Assembly: GCA_039096225.1 (NCBI GenBank)
Contig: JBBPEB010000002.1
Location: 124,001-188,000, forward strand
Source: Blastocystis sp. Blastoise
Lineage: Eukaryota; Protista; Bigyra: Opalinata
Reading direction: 5' to 3'
DNA: 64,000 nucleotides
Position 1 is the first letter of the stretch, and each line of letters begins with the position of its first letter. Made by a program: the position numbers and the translations under genes. Below the pieces are notes generated by a model. The model ran no database searches. It saw only the letters and a list, made by a program, of their open reading frames with translations, and was not told the origin of the DNA. Positions 881-55,395 of this stretch are shown piece after piece.

Positions 881-1501
881 ATTCTTTAAGAACTTCTGAA
901 AGATGTTTTTTCAATTGGTTTTATATTGTTTTATTCATTTTTATATATTATATATATACAACTATAAATATATCCTAATTATATGTAATAATTGAAATTA
1001 TTAATTATATTAATTAATGATATAAATATTGCATTAATTATTGAAACATTTGTTTTAAATCTTTTATTAAAATTCATTTTTAACCATACTCTGGAAAAAT
1101 AACTCATTCTAGACTGTCTCTACACGTTTCGTTTTAAACTATAAATACTAATACAATTTACTAGTCATATCAGGTGAATGTTAGAAATATTTTATGAGTA
1201 TTCATCTATTCAATACTTGAGTTTGACCATTTTTGATATAATAACGATTTGTTCTAATTTATATTGAATATATATATATTTTTGTAATATATATATAATA
1301 TATATTAGTATTTCTATATTTATCATAATATTTCATTAAATAACTACACATTTTTTTAATGATATTATTAGTAACTGTCTTTAATAACTGTACTGTTGTG
1401 TATAAATATAATAATAAAACAAAACAAATTAAATAACTAAACATAAATAATAATATACTTTAAAAGACCGCCATTTTTTATTTATCCATCATAATCATCA
1501 A

Positions 1502-13454: not shown

Positions 13455-13495
13455 GACTTCTAGAAACTCGCTTTATATATTTAAGGTAATAGAAA

Positions 13496-16184: not shown

Positions 16185-16229
16185 TTATACATATGTATAT
16201 ATATATAATATAATACTATAATATATATA

Positions 16230-19170
16230 TCTTATATATAAAGGCAATAGAAGTTGGATATTTGTGTCCCAAGTTCACGGACCGTTTATTCTATGATGGT
16301 TAAGGCTATGATAATATCCTTTTAGTATGTTATATATTATGTTCCAAATTTTATTTTAGTTTTTTTAATTTTTCAGAAATTCCATATCTAAGGCCTCAAA
16401 ATAGTCCGAGAAGTTTTGCCGACCGTTAGCAAGTTGGCCGTCCTATGAAATCGATTAAAAATTTTTGAAAACTCATTCTTATTGGATAAAAAGAACACAA
16501 ATATCTTTGTCTATTTTCGCGCCAAAAATTTATTGACATGGTCAAAGTTTATACTTCTAATCATTTTGTCTTCATTTTTTCAAAAAAAATTCAATTATAT
16601 TTCTTTTTCTTTTGCAAAACTTTATTTTGTAAATTTGTTATCCATTTTTTTTTTATCTTTTATTTTAAAAATTTCTTTTTCTTTTTTAATTTCTTCTTTT
16701 TATATATTTTATTTATTTTTTTATATTTATTATTTATAAATTTATTTTTTAATTTATAACATTTTTCGCCACACATAAAAACAACTTTTAAAATAGAAGA
16801 AACAATTTAGACAAATAATCAGTTATCAAAGTGACTTAATAGACTTAACTTTAACCTATATGCATAAAATAACCTAAATAATGATAATGTATGAAGCTTT
16901 GAAAAAATTTGATCCACAAAGTTTTGAGATATCGGACACATTCTCTTTTGACCCTTTTAAAATTTAATGAAAACTATCTGGATCATCATGATAACTCATG
17001 AAACCATGCTAAAAGTCATTAAAACCTGTTTTTAGCATGTTGAAAAATTAACAAAAAAATTCAATTGCGTGTTCTGTCAACATTTTTTATTTTATTAATT
17101 ATTAAACGTTACAGGGTTTATTTTAGATGTTTATATTTATGAATTATTTGAACACATTTTTAAAATAAAAAGGTAGAAGAGATATCGAAATCATTTTACT
17201 CTTAATAAAAATTTTTATACTTAATATTTGTAGTTTAGATAAAATTCGCCACTCATTGAACCCATCAGGTTTCTTTAAAGACAAGAATGAGTGGATATCT
17301 GTTTGGTTGACCCTCATAAAATCAATTTATGACTACATTTATGAATACAGTGACCTATATTATACACAAATCTGTCATTATTGCATATTTATGACAACAA
17401 AGTTGGTGTATCGGCAGATTTCGACCTCTTTAATTTCGAGTTTTGACTTCATATTTGGTGTAAGGATGCCTTATATGTTACATTATGATATTTCATATCT
17501 TTAAATGCTTTTTAAAAAAGGTTAAAAAAGTTAATTGCGACTTTGTACCAAGAAAAGTCGTCCTAACACACTTTTTAAAAGTCATATTAATAGTTATTAT
17601 AATATTACATACATATATAAAGTCAAAATATAAAATATCGTTGAATCTCGGGGTCAAAAATGAAAAAGAAATTTTGATATTTTTCAAAAATTTAATTTTT
17701 ATTGTTTTAACTAAGGTCAATGTCAACCATCATTTTTCTATCAATAAAGTCAATATTTATATAATATATAATATGTTTTATTCTAATTATAAATTTGTAA
17801 AAATTAGTTTTTAAAAATAAAAATTGACTGAGAAATAAAATTTCAAAGTGGCACGTCTCTCAAAAAAAGAATAATTTCTTAATACTGTTTATTGATTATT
17901 GTATCCCTATAAACACTATTAATTGACTGAAAAATTATTCTATAACTACAAGGATTATATATATTTATTTATATTAATGAAAAATTATATTAGTCAAACT
18001 AAAAATTATTTTTAGTATATATCATATATAAGTATGACATATATTTTCATATCATAAGAATTCATTTTAAAAAATCAATAATTATTTTTTTATTTATACT
18101 TTTGTGTTCTTTTAAAAGTAGCTTTATATATAAATATGGAATAACTTAATCATTTAATTTATAAATTTTTAAAATATAAGCAAACATAATTTTGGTTCCA
18201 TTACTTTTAGACATATTTATTATGAAATGGATTCTTTATGAATATAAAAACAAAATTATCTATTATTAAAAAAGAAAATATGAATACAAATTCTTATTCA
18301 TAAACTATCATGCATTTTTATTATATATAGATAAGTAGATATTAGTGATATGAAATAGTAGTAGTTAAACTTTTGAATTTTTAAAATTTTAATTCTTTTT
18401 TTTTCTATAAAATACAACGCGTTGTTTTTTATAGGAAAAAAAAAAGAATTAAAATTTTAAAAATTCAAAAGTTTAACTACTACTATTTCATATCACGAAA
18501 CATATATATTCATTTAAAAAACTATATAATCTAAATAAGATCTATTTAGATAGAATATATGCATGATACCATAAAATCAATTTGATAAATGAATAAATAG
18601 AGTAAAGAATATATATAAACATTTTGATTTAGTCACTGATAGCATAAAATTATAAAATTATTTTTTTTATATAAAACGAATAAAATAAAAATATGTATTA
18701 ATAAATAAACATTCCAGAATGAATAATTTAAGCAGAATAACTTGAAATAATAAATAGAATTATTGTTTATTTTCATATCATAATAGCTTTCATAGATAAA
18801 TGTAACTTATATTAAGAAACTATTATGATATGTGTCATTAATGAAACTATTATAAACTATAAACTACTTTAAAAAGTATTTTTATGTATCTATATGATAG
18901 TATACATTTAAAAAAATATTTATATAAATTATAAAGCTCCAGTGTCTTCCCTGTCACTGGACGAAATTGCCACGTGGCAATTGTCACCAAAATTTGTGAC
19001 AAAATATTTATTTTTGACAGTGTAATTTTATATTTTTATGACTAAGTCAATTTAAGTCTGGCTGAAAGTGACAGTCAGCTATTGTCATGGCAATTGTCAC
19101 AAAAGTCAGGGAAGACATTGTAAAGCTCTAAAGGTTACGAAGCATCGGCGAAGCCGATGCCACCCGCTAG
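16230..19170 (+). mobile_element. Helitron family A, copy 2
   Basis: Same TC start and hairpin-CTAG end as A1. Confidence 0.9.
18940..19120. mobile_element. hAT-type MITE, 181 bp, 8-bp TSD TAAAGCTC
   Basis: TIRs cagtgtcttccctg / cagggaagacattg; empty site in A1; same insertion in A3. Confidence 0.92.
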
Positions 19171-20299
19171 TTTATTTTAATTTACATAGTTTTATCATGT
19201 ATATATAGGATAGGAAAGATGTTCCACATATTTACATATTATAGATATTATAATGATTAGTTTCATACTTTATATATATTATCTTGCTATTTATTTTTTA
19301 TTATGTTATATTTAATTGTATAGTATTCCTTTTGTTTTATAATTTTTTAGGAATGAAATTAGTGCAGAGAATTCTTATCGAATAGCAGAGAAATGCAATA
19401 CAAATTATTCAACATTACATTTCTATTAGATTACATTCTTTAATATGTTTATGGAAACTTATAGACCTTTCAAACATTTTCAATTTACTTATACATTTAT
19501 AAAATCAATAATTCGTTAAAATAAGATATGTTTTAAACAATAGTTTGTGTATTGTGAATTTTATCTTTATAAATAACTATACTAAATATATATTTTGATT
19601 CTCTATGGCCTTCATATTATAGATCAAATACTGTTCTATCAATATGTCTCACAAGAATGTTTAATTGTAAATAAGGTTTTTAAAATAACAAGTTTTTTGC
19701 TCTTTCTAAGTCTAAAAGCGTGTTTGCAATGAAATGATTTAGCTTAATACAAACATGATCATTTATAAATCAATTTTATAATCAAACAGACATTTTAGTA
19801 AAAAAGAGTAGAATTCTAGAATGTTAATACACCCCCTGAAAACAAAGAATTTTATATAGACATTTTCTATGAAAAAAAGATTTTATTTAAGGGCTTGGTT
19901 GTGTTTTTTAAAAAGCAGATGTTTAACATAATTATTTTTTTTTGCTTATTTGAAACTATTTTTTATATAAAGTACCTGAAACAGACTGACCTCCTGCACC
20001 AAAGTGACACTTTTTCTGAAAAACGTAATTCTCATGGGAATTTATTTTATTACAGTTAAAAATATAAAAAAACATGGAAATCAGTTTTTTTTTTAATTGT
20101 TAAACAAAACAATATGTGATAACAAATATATATAATAAATAAAAGAAATTATAATAAAAAAATGAAAAAAATATATAGAAATTATAATAATTAGCATGAA
20201 TATTAGTAGTATAGTATAAATTAGAAATTAATAAATTAAAAAATAAATATATATATAATTATTAAGAAGAATATATTATAAAGCATCATCAATTTAAGA

Positions 20300-26184: not shown

Positions 26185-27474
26185 TATTCTTTAAAACATT
26201 TTGTAATTATTTTTTGATAATCTATATGAGTAAAGCCACTCATTTCATATACACCTAGAAGGAACACATTCTTTGAATCAAGAGGCTTTACAAGGATGCC
26301 AAATACTTCTCTTCCTCCTTCATCAGTGGTACCATCAATAAACATCTCAATTTTTCTATTAAAAAGTATTATTTTTAGCTTTTCTTTTTCTATATTATAT
26401 AGTTTAGGAATAGTAGTATTGGATAGTGTTCTTAATGTAGGGATATCATTACAATTGATTATATGTCTAACAGCGAAATATTTATATTCCTCTGAATCTA
26501 GGAATCATAAAGGACTATATATTTATATAAGAAGTATAGCCATATCTTCACCAATATTTGTATTTTTACATTTATTTTTTATTTCATTATTTTCTTTTTT
26601 TCTAGTTTCAAAATGTTGCCTATTTATTATATGTTTTTTTGTTTTAGATGAGAGATTATGTTTGAAGAATTATTGTATAGATATGATTGTTTACAGCACT
26701 CACAAAGGATCTTATTATCAACTGGCTTTAAGCAGCATCTATCTTGGTGAAAACGGTTTTCTGGATCATCAAAAGTCTGTAATCACCTTTCAAGCGTCAT
26801 CTTATTGTTATGTCTTTGATTTATAGAAGTTTTCCTTTCTTTATTTTTTTCTCTAATTGCTTCTGACATTTTCATTACGGTTTCCTAAATATGAATATTA
26901 CTATTATTTTCTTCCACGAGTTGTTGCGTCTCCTGTTGGTTATTCTGCTGCTATTCATCATTTATATTATTATCTTTTTCACCATTAATGTTCTGATTTG
27001 TCGATGTTTTTCTTGTATTGTTTTCAGAAATGTTTTTCTTCTGTTTTCGATGTATTATATTAATTTTTTCTGTGTTTCTGTTGCATTCCATTCTTTTCTT
27101 TTTGGATGCTATAATTAATTATGTTAAGTTTAAAAAATTTAAGTGTAAAAATAGTATACATTGTTTTTGTTGTTTATTCATAATAAAAAATCTTATTTAA
27201 AAGTTTAATTCGTTATAAAAATGGTAAAAGAAAAATAAGTTAAAATTATTTCTTAAATCTAAATAGATATGGCTATTTTTCTTTATTATTCATGAAATAT
27301 TCCGTCTAATAATGGGTTTTTTATTTCAAGATAATTTTGGCTTTTTTTTGCATAATATTATAGAAAACTAGAAACGTTGTATCTTCATAAAAACTGTGAA
27401 TACCAAATATTTTTTTATAAAAATACCATATTTAGTACTTCATATATACATAACTGCTATTAATATATTAGAAT

Positions 27475-30149
27475 ATATATATATGAGAATAGGCAAAAAA
27501 ATTCCCATTGGTCAGTTTTTGGAAAATGCATTTGATTGGCTACTATATACTATAGTTTGTCGCCGCAACTCCTCTAAACTTACGGGGAGTTAACTTTTGA
27601 GTGAAACACAGTTCAATAGGATATAACATGTAGTTGTGCACCATATATTTGGTTAAGCGATATAATTAATAATTAAAAAGATATTAATAAAAGAACAGAA
27701 AACATGATTTTTGAGTCGTTTTTGATTGGCTCTTTGGGGTGACCCCGATAAAAATTGTTGACCAGACAATTGGAAAATAAACATGGGGTAAACTTGATTT
27801 TTTCTCAATCCCACAATATACGTTATCCGTGTTTATTCTTTATATTTATCTATTTTTTAATACTTTTTCATATTGAACACGTGAGGCCTTAACGGTCAAA
27901 TTTAGATTCTTATTTTGACATGATATTCTGATTCAGGAGGTCGAAAAACCTAGGTGTACCAATTTTGAGTTCCTGAGGACGATTTTTGAGTGATCGATAT
28001 TTTCTTCGATCTTCTTATAATGGACTAATATTGTATAATGGTAATCAATAGGTCCTCAAACTACTATAGTTAAAACAAGGTCTTAAAATAATGAGTTTGA
28101 GTGTCACAATTTTGAAAAATGTGAATTAAGTGGTCTTAGAGGATAAGATTCAATATAATGACTTTTGTTTAGTAAACTAGAGATAATACTCTATTCTATG
28201 TTAAAAGGAGAGTCAAAATTATGATGGTCAAAGTGTATCACCAAATGACAAAATGTGTCTTAAAAAGTAAAAGTGTTTGCATATGTGTATAGAATCATGT
28301 ATTAAGTATATTCTATGAATAAGAACTTTAAATAAATAGTTTAAGGTTGCCAAATTTAAATAAATGTGTAAAACATAGTCTTAAACTATGAATAAAAAAT
28401 TTATAGATTTTAATTAGTGTACAGCTGTAGTAGCTCTACAACATATCAAAAGTGCAAAGAAAATAATTTTTAGAGAGTGGATGTGTGAGGTGTTGTGAGA
28501 GTTATTAAAAATTTATTTTTACTTCAGTTTATTTAAAATCGTGAATTTCGTGCACTGTAGAAAAATTGAGTCAAAAAATCAACTCTAAGGGTCTTAAATT
28601 TAAAAAAATGTAAAAATGAGTGACTTAGAGGACGAGATTCAAAATAAGAGTGTTTATTCATTAAACTAGAGTGTATGAGCTATATTATGTTAAAAGAAGG
28701 GACGAAAATGTTTTGATCAAAGTGTATGACCAAATGGTAAAGTGTCCTTAAAAAGTCTAAAGTGTTGACTAATGTGCTTATAGAGTCATATAAAGTCTAC
28801 TATGTAAATATTAGCTTTTAAAAATATGTTTAAGCCTTTCAATTAGTAAAAATATGTTCAAAGAGAGTCATAAAATGAGAGTTTTAAGAAACGAGATATT
28901 GTTCAGTATACACTAAGAGACACTCTACAACATATCAAAAATATAGCAAAAACTATTTTTAGAGACTGGATGTGTGAAGGGTTGTGAGAGTTATTGAAAA
29001 AATATTTTTACTTCAGTTTATCCAAAATCGTGTTTTTGGAACACTGTAGAAAAATTAACTTCAAAAATCAACTCTAAGGGTCTTAATTTTAAAAAATGTG
29101 AAAATGATTGACTTAGAGGACGAGATTCAAAATTCCCCATCGCTTTCATATAATTAGACAACACACTCTATATTATGTCAAAAGGAGGGATGAAAATATT
29201 TTGGTCGAAGTAAATGAGCAAATGCAAAAGGTTTACAAAATGTTTTAAAGTGATCACCAATGTGTAGCTATGGTCATATTAAGTAAAGTGTGTAAATATT
29301 AGCATTTAAAAATGAGTTTAAGTGTGTCAACTTTTCATAATGTGTCAAAAAGGGTCTTTAAGAAAGAGATTCAAAACATTTACTTTTATTTAATAAATAG
29401 TATGATAAACTCTATATTATATCAAAAGACTGACGGAAACTGTTTTGATACAGTGGATCTTGAATGGGTAAAGTCTATTTAAAAGTTACTATTTTGAGTT
29501 ATTTATGTTAAAATCATTATTTGAGACGAATATAAAAATATTAACTTTTTAAATAATGTTTTAGTTGTCAAAGTTAGAATGAATGCTGACTTTGTTATGA
29601 TTAAAGCTTTCTAATTCTTTTAAAAAGTATTAAAATGAGTTAAAATTATTATATTATGCTTATTTAAATGAATTTTATGAATTAAAAATACTTTACACTA
29701 CTTCACATTGGTACTCATTTCTAAAGTTATTGACTTTAAAAACTCAAAGAATGTTTTAAACAGTTGTTTAATTATTACTAAATACAAAATATATTTTAAA
29801 AATAAATTGTTGTGAAAAAATTGACTTAGAAAGTGATTTTAATTAAACAATAATTTTTTCTCTTTTTTAATTTCTTATTTAAAAAGTCTAAAATAATCTT
29901 ATATCAGGAATTGAACCTGATTACAATCATAAAATAATTGTAACTCTCCATATAGAGTATAAGAAATTAATATTTAATAAATAATAAATAATATATATAA
30001 TATATAATATATAATATATAATAAATGACTCATATTAAAAACTATATATATATAATATATAAGATAAAAGATAATAAATATTTTTTATATACTCTTTATG
30101 CAGCCGCGGTCCGGGGCCGTTAGGCACTGGACCTGCGGCGTGACCCTAG
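27475..30149 (+). mobile_element. Helitron family D, copy 2 (5' TC lost)
   Basis: Near-identical to D1; ends in hairpin-CTAG at 30149. Confidence 0.88.
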
Positions 30150-30549
30150 TTAGAATATATATAAATAATCATTATAATCAACATAAATAAAAAGAGATAA
30201 ATAATCCATATTTTATAAACATTTTTATAAATATACTTAAATAATTATAAATATAAACAAAAGAATCAGTCAAATTTCATTTTTTCATTATTTTTTGCAT
30301 ATTTTTGTATATGCAAAATCCAAAACTGGAAGACGAAATCCAAAAATTTGACAATCCCTACAACAACGTCAAATACAGAATAATTAATATAAACAAAGAA
30401 TTGTGTATTTTTTTCCACTTAATTATTTTCTCAATAATTTACAACAATAAAAACATAAGCATTTTGCCAAGTTTATCGCGGTATTAATAGTACTGAAAAA
30501 TAGACTGTCCTGAGTCAAGTTTTACAATTTAAGGCGTCCTGAGTCAATT

Positions 30550-31036
30550 ATCTCAAATGGAAAACTCTGGTCTGACTGTCCATGATACAAATAGGCTCGG
30601 CTCAATTTTTCAGTGTAAAAAGAAATAAATTTTTGATTTTTTGACTGAATTTTGGTTCTAAGTCATAGAGACAAGCTTATTCACTTTTAATTACATTTAT
30701 GACTATAAGAGGGTCTAAACTTCAAACACTACTATAAAATTTAAAAAATTTGGACACCATGAATTCACAAAATTAACACTTTAAAATAAAGAAAAACGTT
30801 TTGGGTATTATGTGACCCTCTGTAAATAAACAATAATGTCAATTCTTTATTAAAATTTGTCTAATAGGGTTTTAAAGTCTAAATCAAAAGTCGACTGAAA
30901 AAAGTGTCAAAATTTTGTCAAAATCCACGATTTTTGCCTAAGTCTATGAAACTACTCAATTTTTAGTGGCTGAACAAATTTTGAACTGAAATAAGCCAAT
31001 CATATGATTTAAAATGATGAAACCAGAATAACAGTG
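30550..31036. mobile_element. Right end of a CACTG (CACTA-type) element abutting the viral insertion
   Basis: Homologous to 53450-53890 and ends ...CAGTG at a similar distance. Confidence 0.6.
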
Positions 31037-31054
31037 ATATATTATTACATCACA

Positions 31055-31674
31055 ATTTGCTCTCAGCTCTCACTCACAAAGATATTCACGGGGCGGCTAA
31101 ATATAAAGAACGGTATATACGGGTAAAAGCCGCGAATGTAAAAAAACTTTCCCGTGAATACACATGAACATGTGCATTGAGTTGAATTTCTCAAGTAGTA
31201 ATATATTAGAAAGGTGGTTCGAAAGAATAGAAAACAAAGACAATATAGATATAAAAAATCAAGATCAACTAATTGTAAGATTTACTTCTGACTTTCGAGT
31301 CAAATACTCTTATGATGATCTTTGTTTCGTGTTTCGCTGAGAGCAAATTGTGATGTAATAATGCGTCATCGCTCAATTTGATTGGAGGAATCTTGAGTTT
31401 CTCCGATCGGATTGGATAAGTTGTGTTTGGTTGTAAGTGTAATTCTTAATATTTATAATTAGGGTCCCAAACCTTTAAATTGAAATAACTTTTTATCCAG
31501 AAGGAATTAGACCCTAAAAATAGCAAAAAAAGAGTTTTGGGAATGGGTACAATTTAATTTTTATTGACTGGTGATTAGGTCCTGACAAGATATAAGGGCA
31601 TATTCTGTATTTTTAATTATGCTGACGTGGTTTATATTTATTTTATTTTATAATTTATTTTATAATTTATTTTA
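31055..31674. repeat. Viral common/control region, copy 1
   Basis: Matches 36100-36720; the only difference I noticed is one T in a homopolymer. Confidence 0.92.
31344..31380 (-). promoter_or_regulatory. Putative rolling-circle origin hairpin with nonanucleotide CATTATTAC
   Basis: Minus strand caaattg-agc-gatg-acgcattatta-catc-a-caatttg; fits NANTATTAC. Confidence 0.7.
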
Positions 31675-31697
31675 TAATTTTTAGTAAAAAAAAAAAA

Positions 31698-33423
31698 ATG
31701 CAAAATAATAATACTAACCCTGTATATTAATAAATATATTTAAGTTATTGTTATATAGAACCGTCAGTCTCAATATTGGACTCTTACTTTATTTGGTGAA
31801 GACCTTTTACATTTTAATGAAGTAATCCAACCCAGTTGGAATAGTAATGGTCTTCCATTTGAAATAGTATATAAATATATTATATATATATATATATAGA
31901 ACTATGTTGCTTTATCAAGAGAAGTATCTCCGACTACAAACAACACTCATGTACATTTATATATGGAAATGAAAAAAAGGTTAAGAAGAAATCAGATAAT
32001 AAGATTACTATCCTTAGAGCATACTGATGTAAGACCAAGGGAGTGGTCACGAGAGGCAACTTTAATTTATTTAAGTGAAGTATATATTTATATATATTAA
32101 TTTAATTATTTAATTATAAATATTAGATAAATGAAATAGATGAATATTACAATACAAGCAATACACTTGGATATGGAGCAAACTTTCAAAATGGAATGCA
32201 TCGCGATTTAATAAATGCTTCTACTTATAATGGTGTTCTTTATAATATGAATAATAATAATAGCTTTGCTAGAATAGACCCAATATCTACAGCTCCTATG
32301 AATTTTACTCATAATAAAGTCAAATATTCTAAAAACAAAAAACGTATATACATTATAATTTATATTATATATATAGATCCAAAAAAAATATCTGAAGAAG
32401 TTGCTTCAATGATAAAAAATGGTTGTACTTATGAAGATATATGGGAAGAATATGCTTCCTTTGCCCTATTACATTCAAATAACATAAAAAAAGCAATCTA
32501 TGACTTTAATACCAAAAAAAGAAATACTGCACCTATAGTTTTATATTTATATGGGAAAACTGGAGTAGGTAAAACTTATACAGCTAAAAAAATATGTGAA
32601 CTAGGCGAAAATGAAGATGGTAAAGGATCTTACTACATGAAGAATGGAGATATTAAATGGTATATATTATATTATATTCTATATTTATAGGTGGGATGGA
32701 TACAAAGGTCAGTTTGGCATCATTATTGATGATTTTAGAAAAATCTATAATGATAAAGACCTTCTTCGTATTTTAGATTATTATGATGTAGGAGTGGAAA
32801 CAAAAGGTTCAACAGTAAAAATCACCTCACCTCTAATTATATTTACGTCTGATAGAAGCTTAAAAGAAAATTTCAAAGAACTTTCAAATGATGAATTAGA
32901 ACAACTACTCAGAAGATTCTACAATGAATATGAATTACTTGAAGATAATACTATTGATTTCAAATATAGCAAAGCTAAAGATGATTACATCAAAGGTATC
33001 AGACGTAATCTACTATATAAAGATGATGAAACCAAATATATACAAGCCGCTGATATTATGATGAAAATTAATAATCAATACAAACCAACAGTCAATATAC
33101 CCATACAAATAGAACTAGATAATGAACTTACCCTTAGCTCACCTCCAACAACTCCTCGTATATCTCTTCCTACTATTGAAATAACTACTCCTAAAAAAAC
33201 AAATTTCTGTCACAAAAGACCTAATACTCCTATACCTATTCTAGATTTATCATCTTCAGATAACGAATATAGTAATGAACTCATTGATCTCACTTTCACT
33301 GATAATGAAGAAGACGATGAAGAATATTCTGATCATAATAAACCTATAAGTCTTTCATGGGATAGTAGCGAAGATGATTATTGTATACTCCCAGACTCTC
33401 AAAACATTAAACAAGAATTCTAA
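31698..33423 (+). CDS. rep: CRESS Rep1 (HUH endonuclease plus SF3 helicase), 6 exons: 31698-31721, 31759-31866, 31900-32079, 32127-32343, 32377-32659, 32691-33423; 514 aa
   Basis: Motif I YWTLTL, motif II THVHLY, motif III IYLSE, Walker A GKTGVGKT, KWWDGY restored by splicing, Walker B IIIDDF, motif C IFTSD, Arg finger LLRRF. Confidence 0.93.
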
Positions 33424-33545
33424 ATTCTATATATTTATTATCTATTGAGTTTTTCTGATTTCATATCTTTTCTCAGTTATATCTTTGTTTTAAAAACTTA
33501 TTTGTTTTGTTATATAATTCATATGCAACTCAACACATTGTGCAA

Positions 33546-33608
33546 TTGTGAAATTGTGTATCTGTGAAAATGTGAAATTGTGATTTTGTGAAATTGTGAA
33601 ATTGTGAA
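33546..33608. repeat. Tandem 8-bp TTGTGAAA-like repeats between the convergent rep and cap 3' ends
   Basis: About 8 imperfect copies. Confidence 0.75.
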
Positions 33609-33708
33609 ATAATATTTGTGTTGAAGTGCAGTGAGTGTGAGTAGTAATAATAAAAATTGAACAAAACAAAATTAATTTAAGACAAATAAAAATATATATA
33701 CACATAAA

Positions 33709-34947
33709 TTAAAATTTAGTTAAAGTATTTATTCCTTGAACCCATGGAGAAACACCAGGTATAGCACTAGCAGCTGTAGCTATATTTTGAACAGTTTCAC
33801 TATTCCAAGACCTTTTAAATTTATTCCAGAAATCAACTACACCATTCCACATAGTTTGAAAATCATTATAAGAAGAAGGATAACAAAAATCTAATGATTG
33901 AGTTAAAATAGCACAAGCATAAAGAGCTTGTTCATCTAATAAAGGAGGATTCTTTAATAATGGGAAATACTCACTATTATAAGAAGGAACTAACTCATAA
34001 CCATTACATATTTTTAAAGTAAATGGATTGTTAAAATTTGAACCTTCAACTCTAATAATACCAAAATTAAATCCAGTATGTAAGAAAGAAGGAACATATT
34101 CAGTTACTTCTATAGGTAGCATAACCTTAGTAAATATTCTTTTAGACATCCAAGTATCATAATCAAATATATTCATTTGAGCACTAGCACTTCCTAATAA
34201 TCCATTAATAAAATATTCATAACTATCTCCTGTATCAAGTTGTTTCTTTTGAAATATAGGTGGCCTATAATAATTCTTATAACCATAAGATAAATGTTGA
34301 GGCATATAACAACCATCAGGGACATTAAATACTTTATATTTTGGAGAATAAGAAGTAATAGCATTAGAATCTAAAGGAATATAAGGATTCATATAACTAT
34401 TAAAAGCTTGATAAGATAAATCTTGAGATTCTACACTACCACTAGTAGTATACATAGTATCTACACAATACGGTACTTGAATACCATATATAAGACCTTG
34501 CATATTATTAGTATTACCAGCCCATTTTAATGTACAACCACGAAATAATCCACGACCTAAATTAAAATCTTCTTGATTTTGCTGCCAATTAGGATCTTTA
34601 ACACCCATAATACATGTTTGAGATGATGATGTTTTATCCACAGTATTATACCAAGTAAATGTACCATAAATCAAAATAGGATAAGTAGACCATGGTGTTG
34701 CAATTATAGTAAAATTATTATATAAATCTGGGACAACAGCTCTAGGATCTACAAATGTATCTTGATCTATAGATATATTAAACTTATTATTTAAAGTATA
34801 AATCATGTGGGTTTGGCCATCAGGTACACCGTCAACAGGTATAGAAGTATCATCACAAGGATTAACGTAACGCTTAAGATAAAGGGCTCCCGCAGAGGAA
34901 CTAGCCATTGACAACTTGTCATTTATTATAGTACCTAAACTAGACAT
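33709..34947 (-). CDS. cap: Capsid protein resembling nodavirus/tetravirus self-cleaving capsid precursors, 412 aa
   Basis: N-terminal YLKRYVNPCDDTSIPVDGVPD and C-terminal YPSSYN-DFQTMW...AASAIPG resemble, from recall, the LKCAFAPPD...GIPD and gamma-peptide regions of nodaviruses. Confidence 0.75.
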   Translation of the reverse strand: MSSLGTIINDKLSMASSSAGALYLKRYVNPCDDTSIPVDGVPDGQTHMIYTLNNKFNISIDQDTFVDPRAVVPDLYNNFTIIATPWSTYPILIYGTFTWYNTVDKTSSSQTCIMGVKDPNWQQNQEDFNLGRGLFRGCTLKWAGNTNNMQGLIYGIQVPYCVDTMYTTSGSVESQDLSYQAFNSYMNPYIPLDSNAITSYSPKYKVFNVPDGCYMPQHLSYGYKNYYRPPIFQKKQLDTGDSYEYFINGLLGSASAQMNIFDYDTWMSKRIFTKVMLPIEVTEYVPSFLHTGFNFGIIRVEGSNFNNPFTLKICNGYELVPSYNSEYFPLLKNPPLLDEQALYACAILTQSLDFCYPSSYNDFQTMWNGVVDFWNKFKRSWNSETVQNIATAASAIPGVSPWVQGINTLTKF

Positions 34948-34989
34948 TTAAAATAATTTATGCAAAATAACAAAACATATTTATAAGAA

Positions 34990-35095
34990 AACGAATTTAT
35001 ATATACAGATAAACTGTCTCCTAATACGAATTTATATATTCAGATAAACCGTCTCTAAAAACAAATTTATATATTCAGATAAACTGACTCCATTA
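34990..35095. promoter_or_regulatory. Three 35-bp direct repeats in the divergent cap/ORF3 intergenic region
   Basis: a(c)gaatttatata-t(a/t)cagataaac(t/c)g(t/a)ctc repeated three times. Confidence 0.7.
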
Positions 35096-35145
35096 ATAAT
35101 TATTAATCAAATCATATCATATTTTATTTATTTTATTTACAATAA

Positions 35146-35892
35146 ATGCCTTATAGATACTCATCCAGATATAGAGGTACTCAACGTACCTATTATAGAA
35201 GAAGAAGATATAATAGAAATTCAAACGCTGTAACCACTTATAACAATGCAGTTAATTCTTTTAGAACAAATTGGGCAACTATCGCCGAAGATACTACCGT
35301 AGGTGGAATCGCAAATAAACACAAACTTAGGCACCAATTAATGCTTGTAGCCAAAAAATGTGGAAGAATGTACGTAGCTCAAGCTAGAACACTATTAACA
35401 TCAACAGATTATACTATACCAATTCAAATATTTATACCAAGCGCTACAGGTGACGACGAAAATGCAAAGAACATTAAAAAACTCTGCAACTCTACTATCA
35501 AACAAATTATAAACACAGTCTACACAATTAACAAAAACGGAATCAAAAAAGAATATATATATAGACTAAACGGTTTACTCTATACCTATCCATTCACTGC
35601 AGAACCACTCGCCTATGATTTCACACTACCCATCTACTATGCATCCGATGATTTTACAAAAGCAGAAACAATACTAGTTTTTATATACCAAATGGGAGGA
35701 ATCAACACATTTCCTATTATGTATAATATTTCAGAAGGAGGACAAATGACTTTCAGAACAGAACCACAATATAATACCGTTATCACTGCATTGTTCGACG
35801 AAGCTACAAGATACGTTGCCGCTGCACAAACAGCAGGAACATCACCTATGGTATACTATGCTCAAAATCTACCAGATAGATTACGACACTAA
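35146..35892 (+). CDS. Viral ORF3, 248 aa, Arg/Tyr-rich N-terminus (second capsid or nucleic-acid-binding protein)
   Basis: Intact intronless ORF starting MPYRYSSRYRGTQRTYYRRRRYNR, typical of CRESS capsid arms. Confidence 0.75.
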   Translation: MPYRYSSRYRGTQRTYYRRRRYNRNSNAVTTYNNAVNSFRTNWATIAEDTTVGGIANKHKLRHQLMLVAKKCGRMYVAQARTLLTSTDYTIPIQIFIPSATGDDENAKNIKKLCNSTIKQIINTVYTINKNGIKKEYIYRLNGLLYTYPFTAEPLAYDFTLPIYYASDDFTKAETILVFIYQMGGINTFPIMYNISEGGQMTFRTEPQYNTVITALFDEATRYVAAAQTAGTSPMVYYAQNLPDRLRH

Positions 35893-36099
35893 ACATACTA
35901 ACACTACAAACATTAATTCTTGTCTAATATAATAATATATAATTAAAAACACTGTTTTGTTAATTCTTTTTAAAAAAAAACATTAAAAAAAAAAAAAAAA
36001 ATCGAACACCAAACTCGACTGCGCGACCATACTCTTTGTGAACTTCTACAATAAAACAAGATAAGGATCCGAGAGTACTATACAACCACAAAACTGAGC

Positions 36100-36720
36100 A
36101 TTTGCTCTCAGCTCTCACTCACAAAGATATTCACGGGGCGGCTAAATATAAAGAACGGTATATACGGGTAAAAGCCGCGAATGTAAAAAAACTTTCCCGT
36201 GAATACACATGAACATGTGCATTGAGTTGAATTTCTCAAGTAGTAATATATTAGAAAGGTGGTTCGAAAGAATAGAAAACAAAGACAATATAGATATAAA
36301 AAATCAAGATCAACTAATTGTAAGATTTACTTCTGACTTTCGAGTCAAATACTCTTATGATGATCTTTGTTTCGTGTTTCGCTGAGAGCAAATTGTGATG
36401 TAATAATGCGTCATCGCTCAATTTGATTGGAGGAATCTTGAGTTTCTCCGATCGGATTGGATAAGTTGTGTTTGGTTGTAAGTGTAATTCTTAATATTTA
36501 TAATTAGGGTCCCAAACCTTTAAATTGAAATAACTTTTTATCCAGAAGGAATTAGACCCTAAAAATAGCAAAAAAAGAGTTTTGGGAATGGGTACAATTT
36601 AATTTTTATTGACTGGTGATTAGGTCCTGACAAGATATAAGGGCATATTCTGTATTTTTTAATTATGCTGACGTGGTTTATATTTATTTTATTTTATAAT
36701 TTATTTTATAATTTATTTTA
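36100..36720. repeat. Viral common/control region, copy 2 (origin hairpin at 36389-36425)
   Basis: Direct repeat of 31055-31674. Confidence 0.92.
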
Positions 36721-36744
36721 ATATTTATTTGATATTTTATAAAT

Positions 36745-37623
36745 ATGAGTGATAATAATAATGTTGTATTTATATAATTATTATATATATATGTATATAG
36801 TCACCACAAAGTCAATATTGGTTTTGTACACTATTCGGTGATGACCGAGATTTCTTTTTTCAAGAGACTCTACCTAATTGGGAGGAAAATGGTTTACCAC
36901 AGGAAATTATGTATGTGGCGTATGTAACTGAACCTAATAACGAAACACATAATACGCATACACATTTATACATTGAATTAACAACAAGAAGAAGAAGAAA
37001 TAAGGTCCGAAGAATGCTTCAGTTGGAACATACAGATGTTAGACCTCGTGATGGAACTCGTGAAAACGTACTATATTATTTATCAGAGGTATATACATAT
37101 ATATATGTATATATATATATATATAGATAAATAATTTACATGAAATATATCGTAACCAAAATACTAGAGGCTATGGAGCTATAACAAGTGGTACTCATCG
37201 TGATTTATTTGCAAGTCAAACTTTCAATGGAAGACTGTATAACTTAGAATCAAGAAACATAAGTAGTGAACCTTCTCCGTTATCACCTGGTCCTATTAGA
37301 TTTATTAAAACAGATGTTAAATATTATAAAAATAAAAAACATCCGAAAAAAAATTCCGAAGAAGTAGCTACAGCAATAAGGAATGGTAATACTTACGATG
37401 CTATATGGCACGAATTTCCGGGATTTACACTCTTACATTCACAAGCAATTAAGAGATTAATCTATGATTTTAATGAAAAGAAAAGAGTAGAATCTCCAGT
37501 AGTTATATATATATGGGGCGAAACTGGTTTGGGAAAAACCTATACAGCAAAAAAACTTTGCGAATTAGGTCCAAACAAATTAGGTGATGGTTCATATTAT
37601 TTAAAGAATAGCGATATAAAATG
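36745..37623 (+). pseudogene. rep: CRESS Rep2, divergent paralogue; exons 36745-36765, 36801-37088, 37127-37623; truncated in the next intron by Helitron C
   Basis: YWFCTL, THTHLY, YYLSE, GETGLGKT; frame open until the donor at 37624. Confidence 0.9.
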
Positions 37624-37646
37624 GTATATTAATATATTTATATATA

Positions 37647-39402
37647 CAAGCGTTTCACGACTGGCTACGCCACCTACGCTTGAGTTTTGATAGTTGTCAT
37701 CTCTTAATTGTTATATTTTATGTTTTTTTTTAATATTATGTTTATTTTTATGTTTTTGTTATTCATTTCTATTTTTTTTATTTTTAGGATGAAGACTATT
37801 TCATATTTTATAAATTATTATTTCAATTGTTTTAGTTGTTATCTTCTATTGTTTAGTTATTAGTTTAGTATATTCTAAATAATTCAATTCATACTTTATT
37901 GATAATTCCTATTTAACATTTTATATTACATTTTTTTGAGTATTATTTCCTTTTTTATTTAGTATCATTTTAGCTATTTTTATTATTGATTATATATATT
38001 TATTGTTTATTAATAATAATTGATTAGCTCTTGTGTTTTATTTTTGATCTTATTCATATTTCTATTTCTATTTCTATTTCTATTTCTATTTCTATTTCTA
38101 TTTATATTTCTATTTAGATTTCTATTTAGATTTCTATTTAGATTTAGATTTAAGTTTAGATTTATATTTATATTTATATTTATATTTACATTTATATTTA
38201 TATTTATATTTATATTTATATTTATATTTATATTTATATTTCTATATTAATTCACTTTTCTTTGTTAATTTATTTATAACTGTATTTGTAATTATAAATT
38301 CATTTAGTTTTATAAATATTTTATACTTTAAACAATATTATTATGATTATAAAAAATTTTTTATTTTAAAACTTAATATTATCAGTTATATCTTATCTCT
38401 AAGTATTTATTTTTTATTTTTAATTATTCTATATAATTATTATTATGAGAAACAACTTACTCTTTTGTCTAAAAAATATTATTTATTCTTTTATGAATTT
38501 TCTCATATATTATTTTATTTCATTTTAAATTATTATCATTTTTATCTCTATTTGATTTTTTATATTCTATCATTTCTTTTTATATATACTATTATAAATA
38601 TATATATTTAATATTTTATTATACCCCTTTTTCGTATTAATAAATGTTTAATTATATGTAATAGTTGCTATAGTTTAATACTATCAGATTCAAATGTTCA
38701 TAATATTATTCTTTTTTTATTACTCCTATTTCAATTTGGATTTTTAAAAACAAAAAATATTTTTAATAATTAAAAAATATATATTATTCTATATAATCGA
38801 TAATAACTCATAGAGTTCTTTTATAAATATTTATCATATATAGAATTTTTTTTATAAAAGAAAAAAGAATTATTTTTAAAAATTATCTATTCATTTTTTA
38901 TAATGTTTTCAAAATCATTTCATTAAATGAAACGAAAAACTAAATATAAACCAAAAATTACATTCTATATCATAAATAGATTTAGTACTTTAAAATACTT
39001 TACCTATTGTACATGAAATAAAGTTTATAAAACAAATAAGTTATTTTTAAAAAACTCTAAAAAACTTTTAACATTTTTTTCAAACACATTCACTTTTATT
39101 AAAACGAATTTTATATTCATATACATATATATTGAATTTATTATTTAATTTGTAAAGAATAACTTGAATCTCTTTTGTTTAAAGCCACAATTACAAAAAA
39201 TGAGTTCTTTTGAAAGACAAAAAACATTCTTTAAGCTATAATATTTTTATATTTAGTGACATAAAAACGTATTATACTGTTTTAGAAGCAATTAAAATCA
39301 TTTTACCCATTCTAACATTCCTATCAAACAGTCAACCATATTTAATTAGACTAATTTTTAATATTTTATATTCTATTATGACTCTATTTATTATTATTAT
39401 AA
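37647..39402 (-). mobile_element. Helitron family C, 3' portion
   Basis: Reverse-complement CTTG/hairpin end at 37647; homologous to about 24480-26184. Confidence 0.85.
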
Positions 39403-42342
39403 CTAGCGGGTGGCATCGGCTTCGCCGATGCTTCGTAACCTTTAGAGCTTTACAATGTCTTCCCTGACTTTTGTGACAATTGCCATGACAATAGCTGACT
39501 GTCACTTTCAGCCAGACTTAAATTGACTTAGTCATAAAAATATAAAATTACACTGTCAAAAATAAATATTTTGTCACAAATTTTGGTGACAATTGCCACG
39601 TGGCAATTTCGTCCAGTGACAGGGAAGACACTGGAGCTTTATAATTTATATAAATATTTTTTTAAATGTATACTATCATATAGATACATAAAAATACTTT
39701 TTAAAGTAGTTTATAGTTTATAATAGTTTCATTAATGACACATATCATAATAGTTTCTTAATATAAGTTACATTTATCTATGAAAGCTATTATGATATGA
39801 AAATAAACAATAATTCTATTTATTATTTCAAGTTATTCTGCTTAAATTATTCATTCTGGAATGTTTATTTATTAATACATATTTTTATTTTATTCGTTTT
39901 ATATAAAAAAAATAATTTTATAATTTTATGCTATCAGTGACTAAATCAAAATGTTTATATATATTCTTTACTCTATTTATTCATTTATCAAATTGATTTT
40001 ATGGTATCATGCATATATTCTATCTAAATAGATCTTATTTAGATTATATAGTTTTTTAAATGAATATATATGTTTCGTGATATGAAATAGTAGTAGTTAA
40101 ACTTTTGAATTTTTAAAATTTTAATTTTTTTTTTTTTCCTATAAAAAACAACGCGTTGTATTTTATAGATAAAAAAAGAATTAAAATTTTAAAAATTCAA
40201 AAGTTTAACTACTACTATTTCATATCACTAATATCTACTTATCTATATATAATAAAAATGCATGATAGTTTATGAATAAGAATTTGTATTCATATTTTCT
40301 TTTTTAATAATAGATAATTTTGTTTTTATATTCATAAAGAATCCATTTCATAATAAATATGTCTAAAAGTAATGGAACCAAAATTATGTTTGCTTATATT
40401 TTAAAAATTTATAAATTAAATGATTAAGTTATTCCATATTTATATATAAAGCTACTTTTAAAAGAACACAAAAGTATAAATAAAAAAATAATTATTGATT
40501 TTTTAAAATGAATTCTTATGATATGAAAATATATGTCATACTTATATATGATATATACTAAAAATAATTTTTAGTTTGACTAATATAATTTTTCATTAAT
40601 ATAAATAAATATATATAATCCTTGTAGTTATAGAATAATTTTTCAGTCAATTAATAGTGTTTATAGGGATACAATAATCAATAAACAGTATTAAGAAATT
40701 ATTCTTTTTTTGAGAGACGTGCCACTTTGAAATTTTATTTCTCAGTCAATTTTTATTTTTAAAAACTAATTTTTACAAATTTATAATTAGAATAAAACAT
40801 ATTATATATTATATAAATATTGACTTTATTGATAGAAAAATGATGGTTGACATTGACCTTAGTTAAAACAATAAAAATTAAATTTTTGAAAAATATCAAA
40901 ATTTCTTTTTCATTTTTGACCCCGAGATTCAACGATATTTTATATTTTGACTTTATATATGTATGTAATATTATAATAACTATTAATATGACTTTTAAAA
41001 AGTGTGTTAGGACGACTTTTCTTGGTACAAAGTCGCAATTAACTTTTTTAACCTTTTTTAAAAAGCATTTAAAGATATGAAATATCATAATGTAACATAT
41101 AAGGCATCCTTACACCAAATATGAAGTCAAAACTCGAAATTAAAGAGGTCGAAATCTGCCGATACACCAACTTTGTTGTCATAAATATGCAATAATGACA
41201 GATTTGTGTATAATATAGGTCACTGTATTCATAAATGTAGTCATAAATTGATTTTATGAGGGTCAACCAAACAGATATCCACTCATTCTTGTCTTTAAAG
41301 AAACCTGATGGGTTCAATGAGTGGCGAATTTTATCTAAACTACAAATATTAAGTATAAAAATTTTTATTAAGAGTAAAATGATTTCGATATCTCTTCTAC
41401 CTTTTTATTTTAAAAATGTGTTCAAATAATTCATAAATATAAACATCTAAAATAAACCCTGTAACGTTTAATAATTAATAAAATAAAAAATGTTGACAGA
41501 ACACGCAATTGAATTTTTTTGTTAATTTTTCAACATGCTAAAAACAGGTTTTAATGACTTTTAGCATGGTTTCATGAGTTATCATGATGATCCAGATAGT
41601 TTTCATTAAATTTTAAAAGGGTCAAAAGAGAATGTGTCCGATATCTCAAAACTTTGTGGATCAAATTTTTTCAAAGCTTCATACATTATCATTATTTAGG
41701 TTATTTTATGCATATAGGTTAAAGTTAAGTCTATTAAGTCACTTTGATAACTGATTATTTGTCTAAATTGTTTCTTCTATTTTAAAAGTTGTTTTTATGT
41801 GTGGCGAAAAATGTTATAAATTAAAAAATAAATTTATAAATAATAAATATAAAAAAATAAATAAAATATATAAAAAGAAGAAATTAAAAAAGAAAAAGAA
41901 ATTTTTAAAATAAAAGATAAAAAAAAATGGATAACAAATTTACAAAATAAAGTTTTGCAAAAGAAAAAGAAATATAATTGAATTTTTTTTGAAAAAATGA
42001 AGACAAAATGATTAGAAGTATAAACTTTGACCATGTCAATAAATTTTTGGCGCGAAAATAGACAAAGATATTTGTGTTCTTTTTATCCAATAAGAATGAG
42101 TTTTCAAAAATTTTTAATCGATTTCATAGGACGGCCAACTTGCTAACGGTCGGCAAAACTTCTCGGACTATTTTGAGGCCTTAGATATGGAATTTCTGAA
42201 AAATTAAAAAAACTAAAATAAAATTTGGAACATAATATATAACATACTAAAAGGATATTATCATAGCCTTAACCATCATAGAATAAACGGTCCGTGAACT
42301 TGAGACACAAATATCCAACTTCTATTGCCTTTATATATAAGA
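39403..42342 (-). mobile_element. Helitron family A, copy 3 (contains the hAT MITE at 39453-39633)
   Basis: Near-identical reverse complement of A2. Confidence 0.92.
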
Positions 42343-45300
42343 TATAGAAATGTTGTGGATATACTACAGACTTTATAGAGTTACTAGATAATAATCAAAT
42401 AAGAGAATCTACCTTTAACTATTACAAGTCCAAACAAGGTGATACTAGTAATGAAAATGTAACAATCAACGATCAACATTAATTACTTACAAGCTCAAAT
42501 AATGAAGTTACTGCTAAGTCTTCTAAAAATAATAGTCAAAAGAAAACATATAAAGAATTTTTTGAAAGAACAAATATCGATGAAGAAAATGTAAATAATA
42601 TCAATGATGATTATGAAGAAGAAGTTGAAGAACATGATATAGCTCCTGAAGAAATTGAATTATTTAATCATACAAGCGTTTCACGACTGGCTACGCCAGC
42701 CTACGCTTGAATCTAAATAAACATAAAAAAATAATTTGTAAAAAGACTATCTTTTCATTATATAAAAATTATTTATTTCAAATTTTGTTTTGTTTTATTA
42801 ATATTATCAATAATGGTTTCATATTTTATTAATATTATCAATAATCGTTTCATAAAAAGAAAATTAAAAAATAAAAATTAACAATATATAAAATAAAGAT
42901 TACATTCTATTTCATTAGTAAATATATTTAAATACTTAAAAAACTATAGCTATTGTTTATAAAATATAGTTTATACAACAAATAAGTTATCATAAAAAAA
43001 CTCTAAAAAACTATAACATTTTGAAATACATATACTCACTTTTATTAAAACGAATTTTATATTAATATACATATATATTTAATTTATTATTTTAATTTAT
43101 AAAAAATAACTTGAATCTCTTTTGTTTTAAGTCACAATTACAAAAAATGAGTTCTTTTGAAAGACAAAAAACATTCTTTAAACAATAATAATTTTGTATT
43201 TAGTAAAGAATAAATGTATTATACTGTTTTAGAAACAATTAAAATCTTTTTACCCATTTTAACATTCCTATCAAACAGTCAACCACATTTAATTAGACTA
43301 ATTTTTAATATTTTATATTCTATAATACGTCTATTTATTATTTTTATAAAAAGTGACTTGAATCTCTTGACTTAACTATTGTAATTCTAAAGAATCAAAT
43401 TTTTAAACAACTTAAAATGTTTATTTATTGTAGATTTTAATATAAAATACTCCAAAAACACTCAATACTTTCTTATTCTAACCATTTTGGAAAAATAGAC
43501 TCATTTTAACATTTTGGTCAAACACACAACCACCTTTATTTCAAACAATTCTTTCATTATTATAAACATTAAACACTCTAATACTCATTTTTACAAAAAG
43601 TGTATTGAATCTCTTCACTTAAGACAGTCAAACAGACAATTCAAAATTATTTTACACTTTAAACTCATTATAAAGTAATAATATTTTCAGAATTGTCATG
43701 ATATGTGATTTAGGACACATTGAACTACTTTTTATAAAATTATGAGTCAACATTTCCAGTTTGTCATTCACTCGTCAACTCCACTTTTGACCATTTTTTT
43801 GAGAAACGCAATACATATAATGTCTAGTTTTCAAATATGTAAAAATTAATTGTCAAATATGAATTTGATTTGTCAACTTTCGGAAAATTTTTTAGAAAAA
43901 CGATTTTTCAATTTTCAGTTTTTTAACATGTTATACTATTGACTCTACTGAACTCATTTCTTAATTAATTTTAAATATTAAAAAATATATTATTAATATG
44001 TTTTATTCTATGTATTAATTTGTTATAATTATATAAAATAATTAAATATTGACTGAGAAATTAATGTTATAAAGTATACCCTTTTTTCAAAAATTAATTT
44101 TTTTATGTTTTGCATATATAATTTTTTATCTCAAAAGTTATTTTATATTTTGATAATATTTTTATAAATTTATAAACTATAGGTTGTCTAGTTTATAAAT
44201 AAGTTTTATTTATTTTTTAAAAATTAATATTGATGGAGAAATTGTCAAAATAAACTATAGTATCCAAAATGCTTTCTTCTTTTTAAACGACTTATTTCAC
44301 TAATTAAAGACAATTAAAAACAAATTTATTTATTTTAAGCTTATTTATGACATTTAACACTTATTAAGACTGATAACTGACTTTTTAAAACAAACATTGT
44401 CAGTATCAGTTCAACATGTTGTCTTAACTTTTGTGAATGAGTGATGTATAGTGTTTATGAATGTTTATATATAGTAATTGAAACATTTTAAAGTTTATTG
44501 AGTTGACATTATTTGGTGTTTTTTCACATTATAAAAAATAATATCACTATTTAATACCAATACTTTATATCTGAGTATTACATGATCATATACACAGAAA
44601 TAATACAAAATCAAATTGTTTAAATAGACTTTAACATTTCGAGATACACTCGACCCACTGGTAGGCATTTTCACGGATATCAAAAAAGCGACAAATGAGA
44701 AAAAGTAAACAAAAAATTTTAAGACACTTTTCAGTCATAGCGAATAGAGTGGCCAAAAAATAGGCTAATTTTGTCGGGTATGTTGTTTGTTTTCATTCGT
44801 TCAGAATTCTTTTAGAAACGTCATTTTTTATTTATTTATCGTTGTGTGAATGATAATAAAAATATATATAACAAAAGACAATAGATAATAATAAAATAAT
44901 TATAACAATAAAAAGAAAAGAAAATAGCAATTATTTGAGTTTGTTTTGAGTTGATTGTGAACCATTTTGAGGACTATACATATAAAAATAATAGAACTAA
45001 TAATAATATAGATAATATATAATATATACCTTCTAGTAGCACCTGTAGACAACCCAGTTAATAGAAACTACAACTATAAAAATAAATGTATAAATAAATA
45101 TATAATATAGCAATATACCTTCAACAATCAAGCAGCTTTTGGCCAACGAGAAACACTGAGAACACCTAGAACCTATATAAAAATTAAAATAGTTAATTGC
45201 AAAAATAATAATAATAATATATACCTTTGAAACCAGATAGTGAAGGACCAAGGAGACCTGAGACAGAAGTTGAACCTATAGAAAATGATAAATTATAAAA

Positions 45301-54879: not shown

Positions 54880-55390
54880 TATGTTATTAATAAGATCCGA
54901 ATTTGTTTTAGAAAGAAGACATATTATTGAAAGAATATCTTTATCATTTAATTGAGGAACTGATCGTGTTGTTTCACCTTGAAATGATATCTTACCATAA
55001 GTAGTTATAAATGATATCTCTTTATTTTCTAGTGATGTATATCTTTTATCGTTTTTGGTACTACTAAGTGTATTAAATGAATCTGATGATGTATAGTAAA
55101 CTCCTGATGATTCTTTATCTTGAATTTTAATGATTGTAGATTCATTATAGTTTACTGTTCCTTTAGTTATTCTTTTGATCTTTCGATAAGATCTTTCAGC
55201 TTCCCATGTTGAAGAATAGTAAAGAGAACCAGAATGTTGGATACATAATCCTAGATGCTTTATTGAATGGATTTGAACTGTTATAAGAGGTGCAGGTAGT
55301 ATAGATTCTATAAGAGAAACAAATAATATACATCTTCTTTCGAAGGTATATAATTCTTCTTTTTGAGTTATAGGATTAATTGTTATTGAA
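54880..55390 (-). pseudogene. Fragment of a CACTA/CMC-type transposase
   Basis: TVQIHSIKHLGLCIQHSGSLYYSSTWEAERSYRKIK fits the HxxxHL...G.L...ER pattern. Confidence 0.6.
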
Positions 55391-55395
55391 TCACA

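Follow-up and report, generated by a model that had tools for sequence, protein, structure and literature searches.

A single intron in the Rep gene is known from mastreviruses and genomoviruses. Spliced reps have further been predicted for 36 crucivirus genomes, at sites of the maize streak type (bioRxiv 10.1101/2020.02.27.967703), and putatively for two cycloviruses (PMC8703526), and spliced Reps are described from arthropod-associated genomes (PMC6186406). CRESS insertions in gut protists include whole genomes, sometimes in tandem (PMC7493932), and 38 CRESS EVEs are described from human and animal subtypes of Blastocystis, with a Cap-like sequence in 1/38 (PMC9615429). Such gut-protist EVEs belong to Naryaviridae and Nenyaviridae (Entamoeba), Vilyaviridae (Giardia), and CRESSV1 (Blastocystis). 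CRESS viruses with RNA-virus-derived capsids include bacilladnaviruses, cruciviruses, ctdb796, and ctce741. Bacilladnaviruses have genomes of 4.5-6 kb (PMC7000223), and large CRESS genomes with noda/tetravirus-related capsids have been described (PMC9426455). Mirusviruses contain many spliceosomal introns, processed and expressed, that crowd virion genes and reach 0.2-0.65 per kb in the rich groups (PMC12768974).

We analyzed a 64,000-nt stretch of a Blastocystis sp. Blastoise chromosome (the window; 24.3% G+C), in which a CRESS-DNA-type virus unit of 5,045 nt is integrated, its length being taken from the spacing of two origin repeats. The unit carries a replication gene (Rep1), a 412-amino-acid ORF on the minus strand, and a 248-amino-acid orphan ORF, and host repeats flank the insertion at both ends. 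NCBI holds Blastocystis proteins identical or nearly so to all three ORFs, on a 1.32-Mb contig. The initial annotation of this DNA, made from the sequence alone, did not remark on three of the features listed below: the second Rep, whose introns differ, the duplication of the origin region, and the capsid of RNA-virus type.

30555-31002: host repeat just upstream of the left junction
31040-31067, + strand: left junction with host DNA; nonamer-like TATTATTAC, then an inverted copy of the origin flank
31055-31673: intergenic/origin region copy 1, strongly structured
31355-31363, - strand: putative origin nonamer CATTATTAC in an imperfect stem-loop (function predicted)
33709-34947, - strand: capsid-like ORF, intronless, 412 aa, of the noda/tetravirus (Peptidase A6/A21) kind
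35146-35892, + strand: orphan ORF, intronless, 248 aa, with an Arg/Tyr-rich N terminus
36100-36719: intergenic/origin region copy 2, 5,045 nt behind copy 1
36400-36408, - strand: nonamer CATTATTAC in origin copy 2
36745-37623, + strand: Rep2, truncated; exons 36745-36765, 36801-37088, and 37127-37623
36766-36800 (35 nt) and 37089-37126 (38 nt), + strand: Rep2 introns
37624-37683, + strand: right junction of the insertion, at the start of Rep2 intron 5, which is broken by a dispersed host repeat

Compared with the systems above, the unit resembles mastreviruses, genomoviruses, some cycloviruses, and cruciviruses in having a Rep of HUH and SF3 domains made from spliced mRNA. Unlike mastreviruses and genomoviruses, Rep1 has five introns rather than one, they are 31-47 nt long with the host's GTATAT..TAG signals, and the set differs between relatives; Rep1 also lacks the gemini-type nuclease match that would place it near Geminiviridae and Genomoviridae. 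Its capsid is of the A6/A21 kind, not tombusvirus-like as in cruciviruses. A nodavirus-like capsid and a 5.0-kb unit are shared with Bacilladnaviridae, but the host differs, being a gut stramenopile in place of a diatom. The Blastocystis host is shared with CRESSV1/pecoviruses, and the unit is complete, whereas a Cap-like sequence was found in only 1/38 of the Blastocystis EVEs. It is, like the mirusviruses, a protist nuclear virus with spliceosomal introns; unlike those large double-stranded DNA viruses, it has a 5-kb genome of single-stranded DNA type with all introns in Rep and none in the capsid gene. The unit behaves as a CRESS provirus with a spliced Rep and cannot be filed in a named family. 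The Rep hits included no named CRESSV1 sequence, and our FastTree analysis included no named family references.

Rep1 runs from an ATG at 31698 to a stop codon at 33423. The initial annotation had divided it by five introns of 37, 33, 47, 33, and 31 nt, each of the form gtatat...ag, and we found all five at the positions this implied:

31698-31721, + strand: exon 1 (ATG, 8 codons); outside the RNA contig
31722-31758, + strand: intron 1, 37 nt, phase 0; same site in Rep2; outside the RNA contig
31759-31866, + strand: exon 2 (motif I, WTLTLF)
31867-31899, + strand: intron 2, 33 nt, phase 0, with an in-frame TAG; absent from Rep2
31900-32079, + strand: exon 3 (motif II, H61-V-H63; motif III, Y101-L-S-E104)
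32080-32126, + strand: intron 3, 47 nt, phase 0; joint in the RNA contig; same site in Rep2
32127-32343, + strand: exon 4 (lineage-specific insertion between the nuclease and the oligomerisation region)
32344-32376, + strand: intron 4, 33 nt, phase 1, without a stop if retained; joint in the RNA contig; absent from Rep2
32377-32659, + strand: exon 5 (Walker A, GKTGVGKT)
32660-32690, + strand: intron 5, 31 nt, phase 2; joint in the RNA contig; donor at the same Rep2 site
32691-33423, + strand: exon 6 (Walker B, motif C, Arg finger, acidic tail, stop)

All five introns start with GTATAT, end with TAG, and contain 4-11% G+C, versus 29.5% in the exons. Joined, the six exons make 1,545 nt, equal to 514 codons and a stop codon, without an internal stop. 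In K-W-W-D-G-Y, which the initial annotation had named among the motifs restored by splicing, the first Trp codon is divided by intron 5. Two introns lie inside the nuclease domain and one just before it, and the density is 3.2 introns per kb of Rep1 coding sequence, all five being in the replication gene, whereas the capsid gene has none. Read without splicing, the frame ends after 10 residues. With a single intron retained, it stops after 10 (intron 1), 54 (intron 2), 110 (intron 3), or 280 (intron 5) residues, and only intron 4 can be read through. Because retention of intron 1, 2, 3, or 5 stops translation early, whole Rep would be made only from fully or nearly fully spliced mRNA, which would keep its level low.

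Evidence for splicing came from sequencing run X1, which is likely RNA (the label is a guess). Its contig 1, 881 nt long, skips 47, 33, and 31 nt at GT..AG joints, corresponding to introns 3-5, and omits nothing else. Around intron 2, 9 contig letters stand against 42 in the genome, or 33 fewer (the tool skipped a repeat there), and the contig starts at 31801, downstream of intron 1. Of the five introns for whose junctions the initial annotation proposed an RNA check, introns 2-5 are absent from one likely-RNA contig, and intron 1 lies outside it. This RNA-type evidence consists of one contig from one run at a depth of about 5.6, and it may share its source with the window. X1 was the only run with the region among three runs, none of them on record as RNA, from one study; it contained half of the sampled words of 31055-37650, and the alignment covered Rep1. 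Runs X2 and X3 gave no alignment, which carries no weight as evidence.

Each of the six Rep1 exon peptides is found verbatim and in register in the NCBI protein P0002 (514 aa, a "hypothetical protein" of Blastocystis sp. Blastoise), whose gene model is exactly the five-intron model. In the Blastocystis annotation described in PMC10690189, RNA-supported introns were preferred; if P0002 was annotated by that procedure, the same preference would apply to its introns. Rep2, which lacks introns 2 and 4, is colinear with Rep1 without gaps across both sites. The joints of the X1 contig, the exon peptides of P0002, and the gapless alignment of Rep2 at sites 2 and 4 together argue that the Rep1 introns are not due to chance, and the host spliceosome likely removes all five. 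Two other causes of the interruptions were rejected: a frameshifted pseudogene, because of the RNA joints and the intact frame, and an alternative genetic code, because introns 1, 3, and 5 change the frame.

The spliced product is a Rep of CRESS type, as had been proposed: aligned with 34 typical CRESS Reps by HHalign, it matched over residues 9-355 at 100% and an E value of 1.8e-45. Relatives at an E value of 0.001 numbered 147 in one search and 7,568 in another, and the best PDB matches are Reps. The architecture is an HUH nuclease fused to an SF3 helicase. Residues T18, H61-x-H63, Y101, G236-T243, D284-D285, T323, and R345-R346 match column majorities or known variants. Motif III departs from the pattern, reading YLSE (Glu for Lys) in both Rep1 and Rep2, whereas Lys occupies this position in 253/266 aligned rows. 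This Lys has been proposed to position the substrate (PMC5399927), and with Glu in its place, nicking by Rep1 and Rep2 is putative. A Helitron or Replitron transposon, judged by the general features of those elements, was rejected because an SF3 helicase and a capsid are present.

Among Pfam families, P0002 matched RNA_helicase (E value of 1.2e-13); it had no match to Viral_Rep, nor to Gemini_AL1 at E values up to 1, so that a gemini-type nuclease was not found. The nearest relatives of Rep1 have both Viral_Rep and RNA_helicase domains, and P0002 has, in addition, an acidic tail and extra sequence inserted between its nuclease and helicase parts. The initial annotation had predicted that such a Rep would be missed by ORF-based virus discovery. 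This fits the nuclease half, which is cut into exons of 8-72 codons, three of which were tested and had no Pfam match; it fits the last exon less well, since that exon alone weakly matches RNA_helicase (E value of 1e-3, below the curated cut-off).

A FastTree phylogeny of 253 Reps (13/266 rows were left out, 10 gapped at key motifs and 3 near-duplicates) placed Rep1 and Rep2 together with a support of 1.0 and no well-supported sister. The pair sits on a long, isolated branch of 0.73 substitutions/site, and the nearest other sequence is at a distance of 2.07. A third, distant Rep encoded on the same contig outside the window (P0126; NCBI WA158_003499) has a canonical YxxK and an H-x-H motif II and falls outside the Rep1/Rep2 group.

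To set the viral introns beside those of the host, we used a rough scan of one host gene region, which gave 13 candidate introns of 32-130 nt (median, 61), with a GTATAT start in 8/13 and an ATAG end in 11/13; 200 shuffles gave a mean of 1.8 and a maximum of 6 candidates. The scan is crude, having recovered 3/5 of the Rep1 introns exactly and neither of the two Rep2 introns. The view that the Rep1 introns are like neighboring host introns thus stands for the signals and less so for length, the viral introns of 31-47 nt being at the short end relative to the host median, as expected under a genome-size limit. Tortoise isolates of Blastocystis are described as having 21-23% G+C and longer, more variable introns, and human subtypes as having 30-nt introns (PMC10690189). 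Strong adaptation to an intron-dense host had been suggested; neutral intron gain in an AT-rich, intron-rich nucleus accounts for the data as well.

Rep2 starts right behind origin copy 2 and shares 56% identity with Rep1, measured across 260 codon pairs (dN, 0.40; dS, 1.51, near saturation; dN/dS, about 0.27). Its two introns occupy Rep1 sites 1 and 3 in the same phases and with different sequences; at site 5 the donor is present before the host repeat breaks the gene off, and across sites 2 and 4 Rep2 follows Rep1 colinearly with no intron. NCBI models P0003 and P0123 agree with this structure, and P0123 splices the truncated Rep2 (at 37623) to a host-repeat exon at 42486-42707, about 4.9 kb downstream, a predicted virus-host chimera. 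Judged from sequence divergence, Rep1 and Rep2 split long before the unit copies did and evolved under purifying selection. Because the Reps have diverged so far (56% identity, dS of 1.51) while the unit copies are near-identical, the three shared introns predate the insertion, which looks recent, and its copies. Introns 2 and 4 were either gained in Rep1 or lost in Rep2.

These distances bear on whether the locus is a domesticated or decaying viral fossil, in which introns were gained after one old integration and Rep serves the host (for example, as an antiviral decoy) or serves nothing. For endogenous giant viruses, the presence of introns is taken to indicate assimilation (PMC12768974), and Rep2 is truncated while Rep1 is apparently transcribed without its motif III Lys. 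Against such a history, however, three intron sites are common to Rep1 and Rep2 despite a dS of about 1.5, unit copies are about 99% identical or more, and the Glu is common to both Reps, which are under purifying selection. The unit is moreover complete, with an origin-like region and three open ORFs, and we consider a fossil very unlikely.

The two origin-region copies are identical in 619/620 columns, the sole difference being one gap. CATTATTAC occurs on the minus strand once per unit, and its surrounding stem is imperfect and better formed on the plus strand. The fold of 31030-31480 has a z score of -8.05. Beside the nonamer, 31376-31416 forms a hairpin rich in G-T pairs, far better on the plus than on the minus strand. 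The left junction makes a 27-bp perfect inverted repeat with 31336-31362; because it begins at an inverted nonamer, integration likely began at the Rep nick site. That a near-identical origin region precedes a Rep this divergent suggests recombination within the AT-rich leader. Two co-infecting relatives likely recombined, which placed Rep2 behind this origin region. With its two origins, the unit could loop out or undergo amplification.

Both remaining viral ORFs are uninterrupted and equal to their NCBI proteins over the full length, in agreement with the earlier statement that they are intronless. The 412-aa ORF matched PDB entries named "Capsid protein alpha" (7xpg, E value of 3.6e-6; 7xgz, E value of 6.7e-6), which we take to be from Lake Sinai virus. 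In the Atlas, it matched RNA-virus Peptidase A6 capsid clusters at 0.94-0.95 (A6 on 16-45% of members); the nearest clusters are RNA viruses, most commonly Kitrinoviricota. Its match to Pfam A21 was weak (E value of 0.029), searches of Pfam, PDB, and the Atlas gave no tombus-type match, and a single-sequence fold (pLDDT of 29) was too poor for assessment of a jelly roll. The protein has a C-terminal segment that, in our assessment, resembles the nodavirus gamma peptide. Given this segment and the RNA-virus identity of the nearest Atlas clusters, the capsid was likely captured separately from that of bacilladnaviruses.

The orphan ORF had no match in Pfam, PDB sequences, or the Atlas, and its single-sequence fold had a pLDDT of 38.5. 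The only basis for reading it as a putative second capsid protein is its basic N terminus. Downstream of all three viral stop codons, on the coding strand and within about 40-80 nt, we observed TGTTTTGTT (33503-33511, +; 33660-33668, -; 35953-35961, +), which has 11 matches in the window versus 2.2 expected and presumably resembles the downstream gene element of Blastocystis. For tortoise isolates, the account in PMC10690189 gives no enrichment of that element.

The accession runs indicate at least three near-identical units at two places on one contig. The order of the accessions (KAK8815333-KAK8815339) suggests that a second cluster lies elsewhere on this contig, beyond the window, and that two complete units precede the same truncated Rep2 there, so that the unit copy number differs between the two places. 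In the other copies, the capsid protein differs at 1/412 residues and the orphan protein at 3/248. Because the truncated Rep2 and its read-through (P0003) recur at the end of the second cluster, a host segmental duplication is indicated rather than independent insertions.

A multicopy unit of this kind could also be a long-resident endogenous mobile element, living mainly in Blastocystis chromosomes and copied by Rep or by recombination, forming particles rarely or never, and gaining introns as host genes do. The near-identical units at two places, the long branch of the Rep pair, the replaced motif III Lys, and the lack of a free relative in low-sensitivity scans of viral and metagenome contigs would all fit, and Rep-like genes have been discussed as selfish elements (PMC3198968). 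However, a long chromosomal stay should not favor capsid and orphan ORFs that are both intact and intronless, the introns are short for the host, and the second cluster speaks for duplication by the host. On balance, we regard the mobile element as unlikely.

The tandem units and the abrupt switch between Reps likewise resemble the concatemers expected if two related genomes of a virus replicating in the culture had been stitched into a host contig during assembly, in which case the introns would be real and the integration not. The virus-host junctions are known from the assembled contig. Yet both ends run into dispersed host repeats, a host repeat breaks Rep2 inside an intron, and the same broken end recurs in the second cluster, and we give such a chimera hardly any credence.

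Elsewhere in the window, we observed several other elements. A tyrosine-recombinase-like ORF pair at 1454-2641 (+) matches Phage_integrase (E value of 3e-5) and is possibly, we assume, a Crypton-type transposon, and an intact 448-codon ORF at 11437-12783 (-) encodes a DDE_1 (pogo-type) transposase (E value of 4.7e-15). A dispersed repeat with internal tandem units of 488-489 nt is present in four copies that are 85-97% alike (13470-16200, 27445-30180, 55370-56850, and 62660-64000), one of which ends about 900 nt upstream of the virus. A 2.6-kb element has two inverted copies (16576-19172 and 39401-41997) that are 99% alike, implying a recently active repeat, with older copies at about 4700-7300. 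An array of 29-nt units at 59826-60552 consists of two mutually inverted halves.

Free relatives were sought in viral contigs with Rep2 exon 3, capsid, and Rep1 queries, and none was found by this search, which needs near-exact short peptides and has low sensitivity; a low-sensitivity scan of metagenome contigs with the Rep1+Rep2 alignment and capsid queries also gave no relative. An alignment of 20 sequences had no stretch conserved enough for scanning. A degenerate pattern for the intron at W|WDGY hit 5 viral contigs, 0/5 of which encode a Rep, and was rejected as chance. Our literature search, with limited coverage of subscription papers, turned up no description of a CRESS Rep with several introns or of this element. 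"CRESS" is absent from the main text of PMC10690189, and neither "intron" nor "splic" occurs in the main texts of PMC7493932 and PMC9615429.

Taken together, we think it probable that the locus is a unit-length CRESS provirus whose Rep introns date from nuclear replication of the virus lineage and are still spliced out by the host spliceosome. The introns would have been acquired step by step in the nucleus of an intron-rich, AT-rich host, with Rep transcribed from the intergenic region by host RNA polymerase II, and capture from an RNA virus is the likely reason why the capsid gene has no introns. The introns were likely carried while the lineage still replicated and would presumably have been present in packaged virus; the low-sensitivity scans found no free relative.

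A further-reaching version, which we put forward as doubtful, is a living, reactivatable provirus of an undescribed CRESS family. Spliced Rep would nick both origins, and a 5,045-nt circle would be packaged in an independently acquired noda/tetra-like capsid. Among its relatives, gain and loss of spliceosomal mini-introns would keep pace with divergence, and viromes would under-count an entire clade of multi-intron single-stranded DNA viruses of intron-rich protists.

Small single-stranded DNA viruses have been thought too compact for more than the odd intron, and here a five-intron Rep stands beside a relative with three of the five. Gain or loss of introns inside a 5-kb virus lineage would offer a small, testable system for the origin of new introns, and the hosts of unassigned CRESS viruses could be recognized from the size and signals of their introns. 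To recover nuclease domains of this kind, virome pipelines would have to use spliced alignment. The locus is also another case of a CRESS Rep paired with an RNA-virus capsid and provides a complete, possibly inducible virus genome for Blastocystis.
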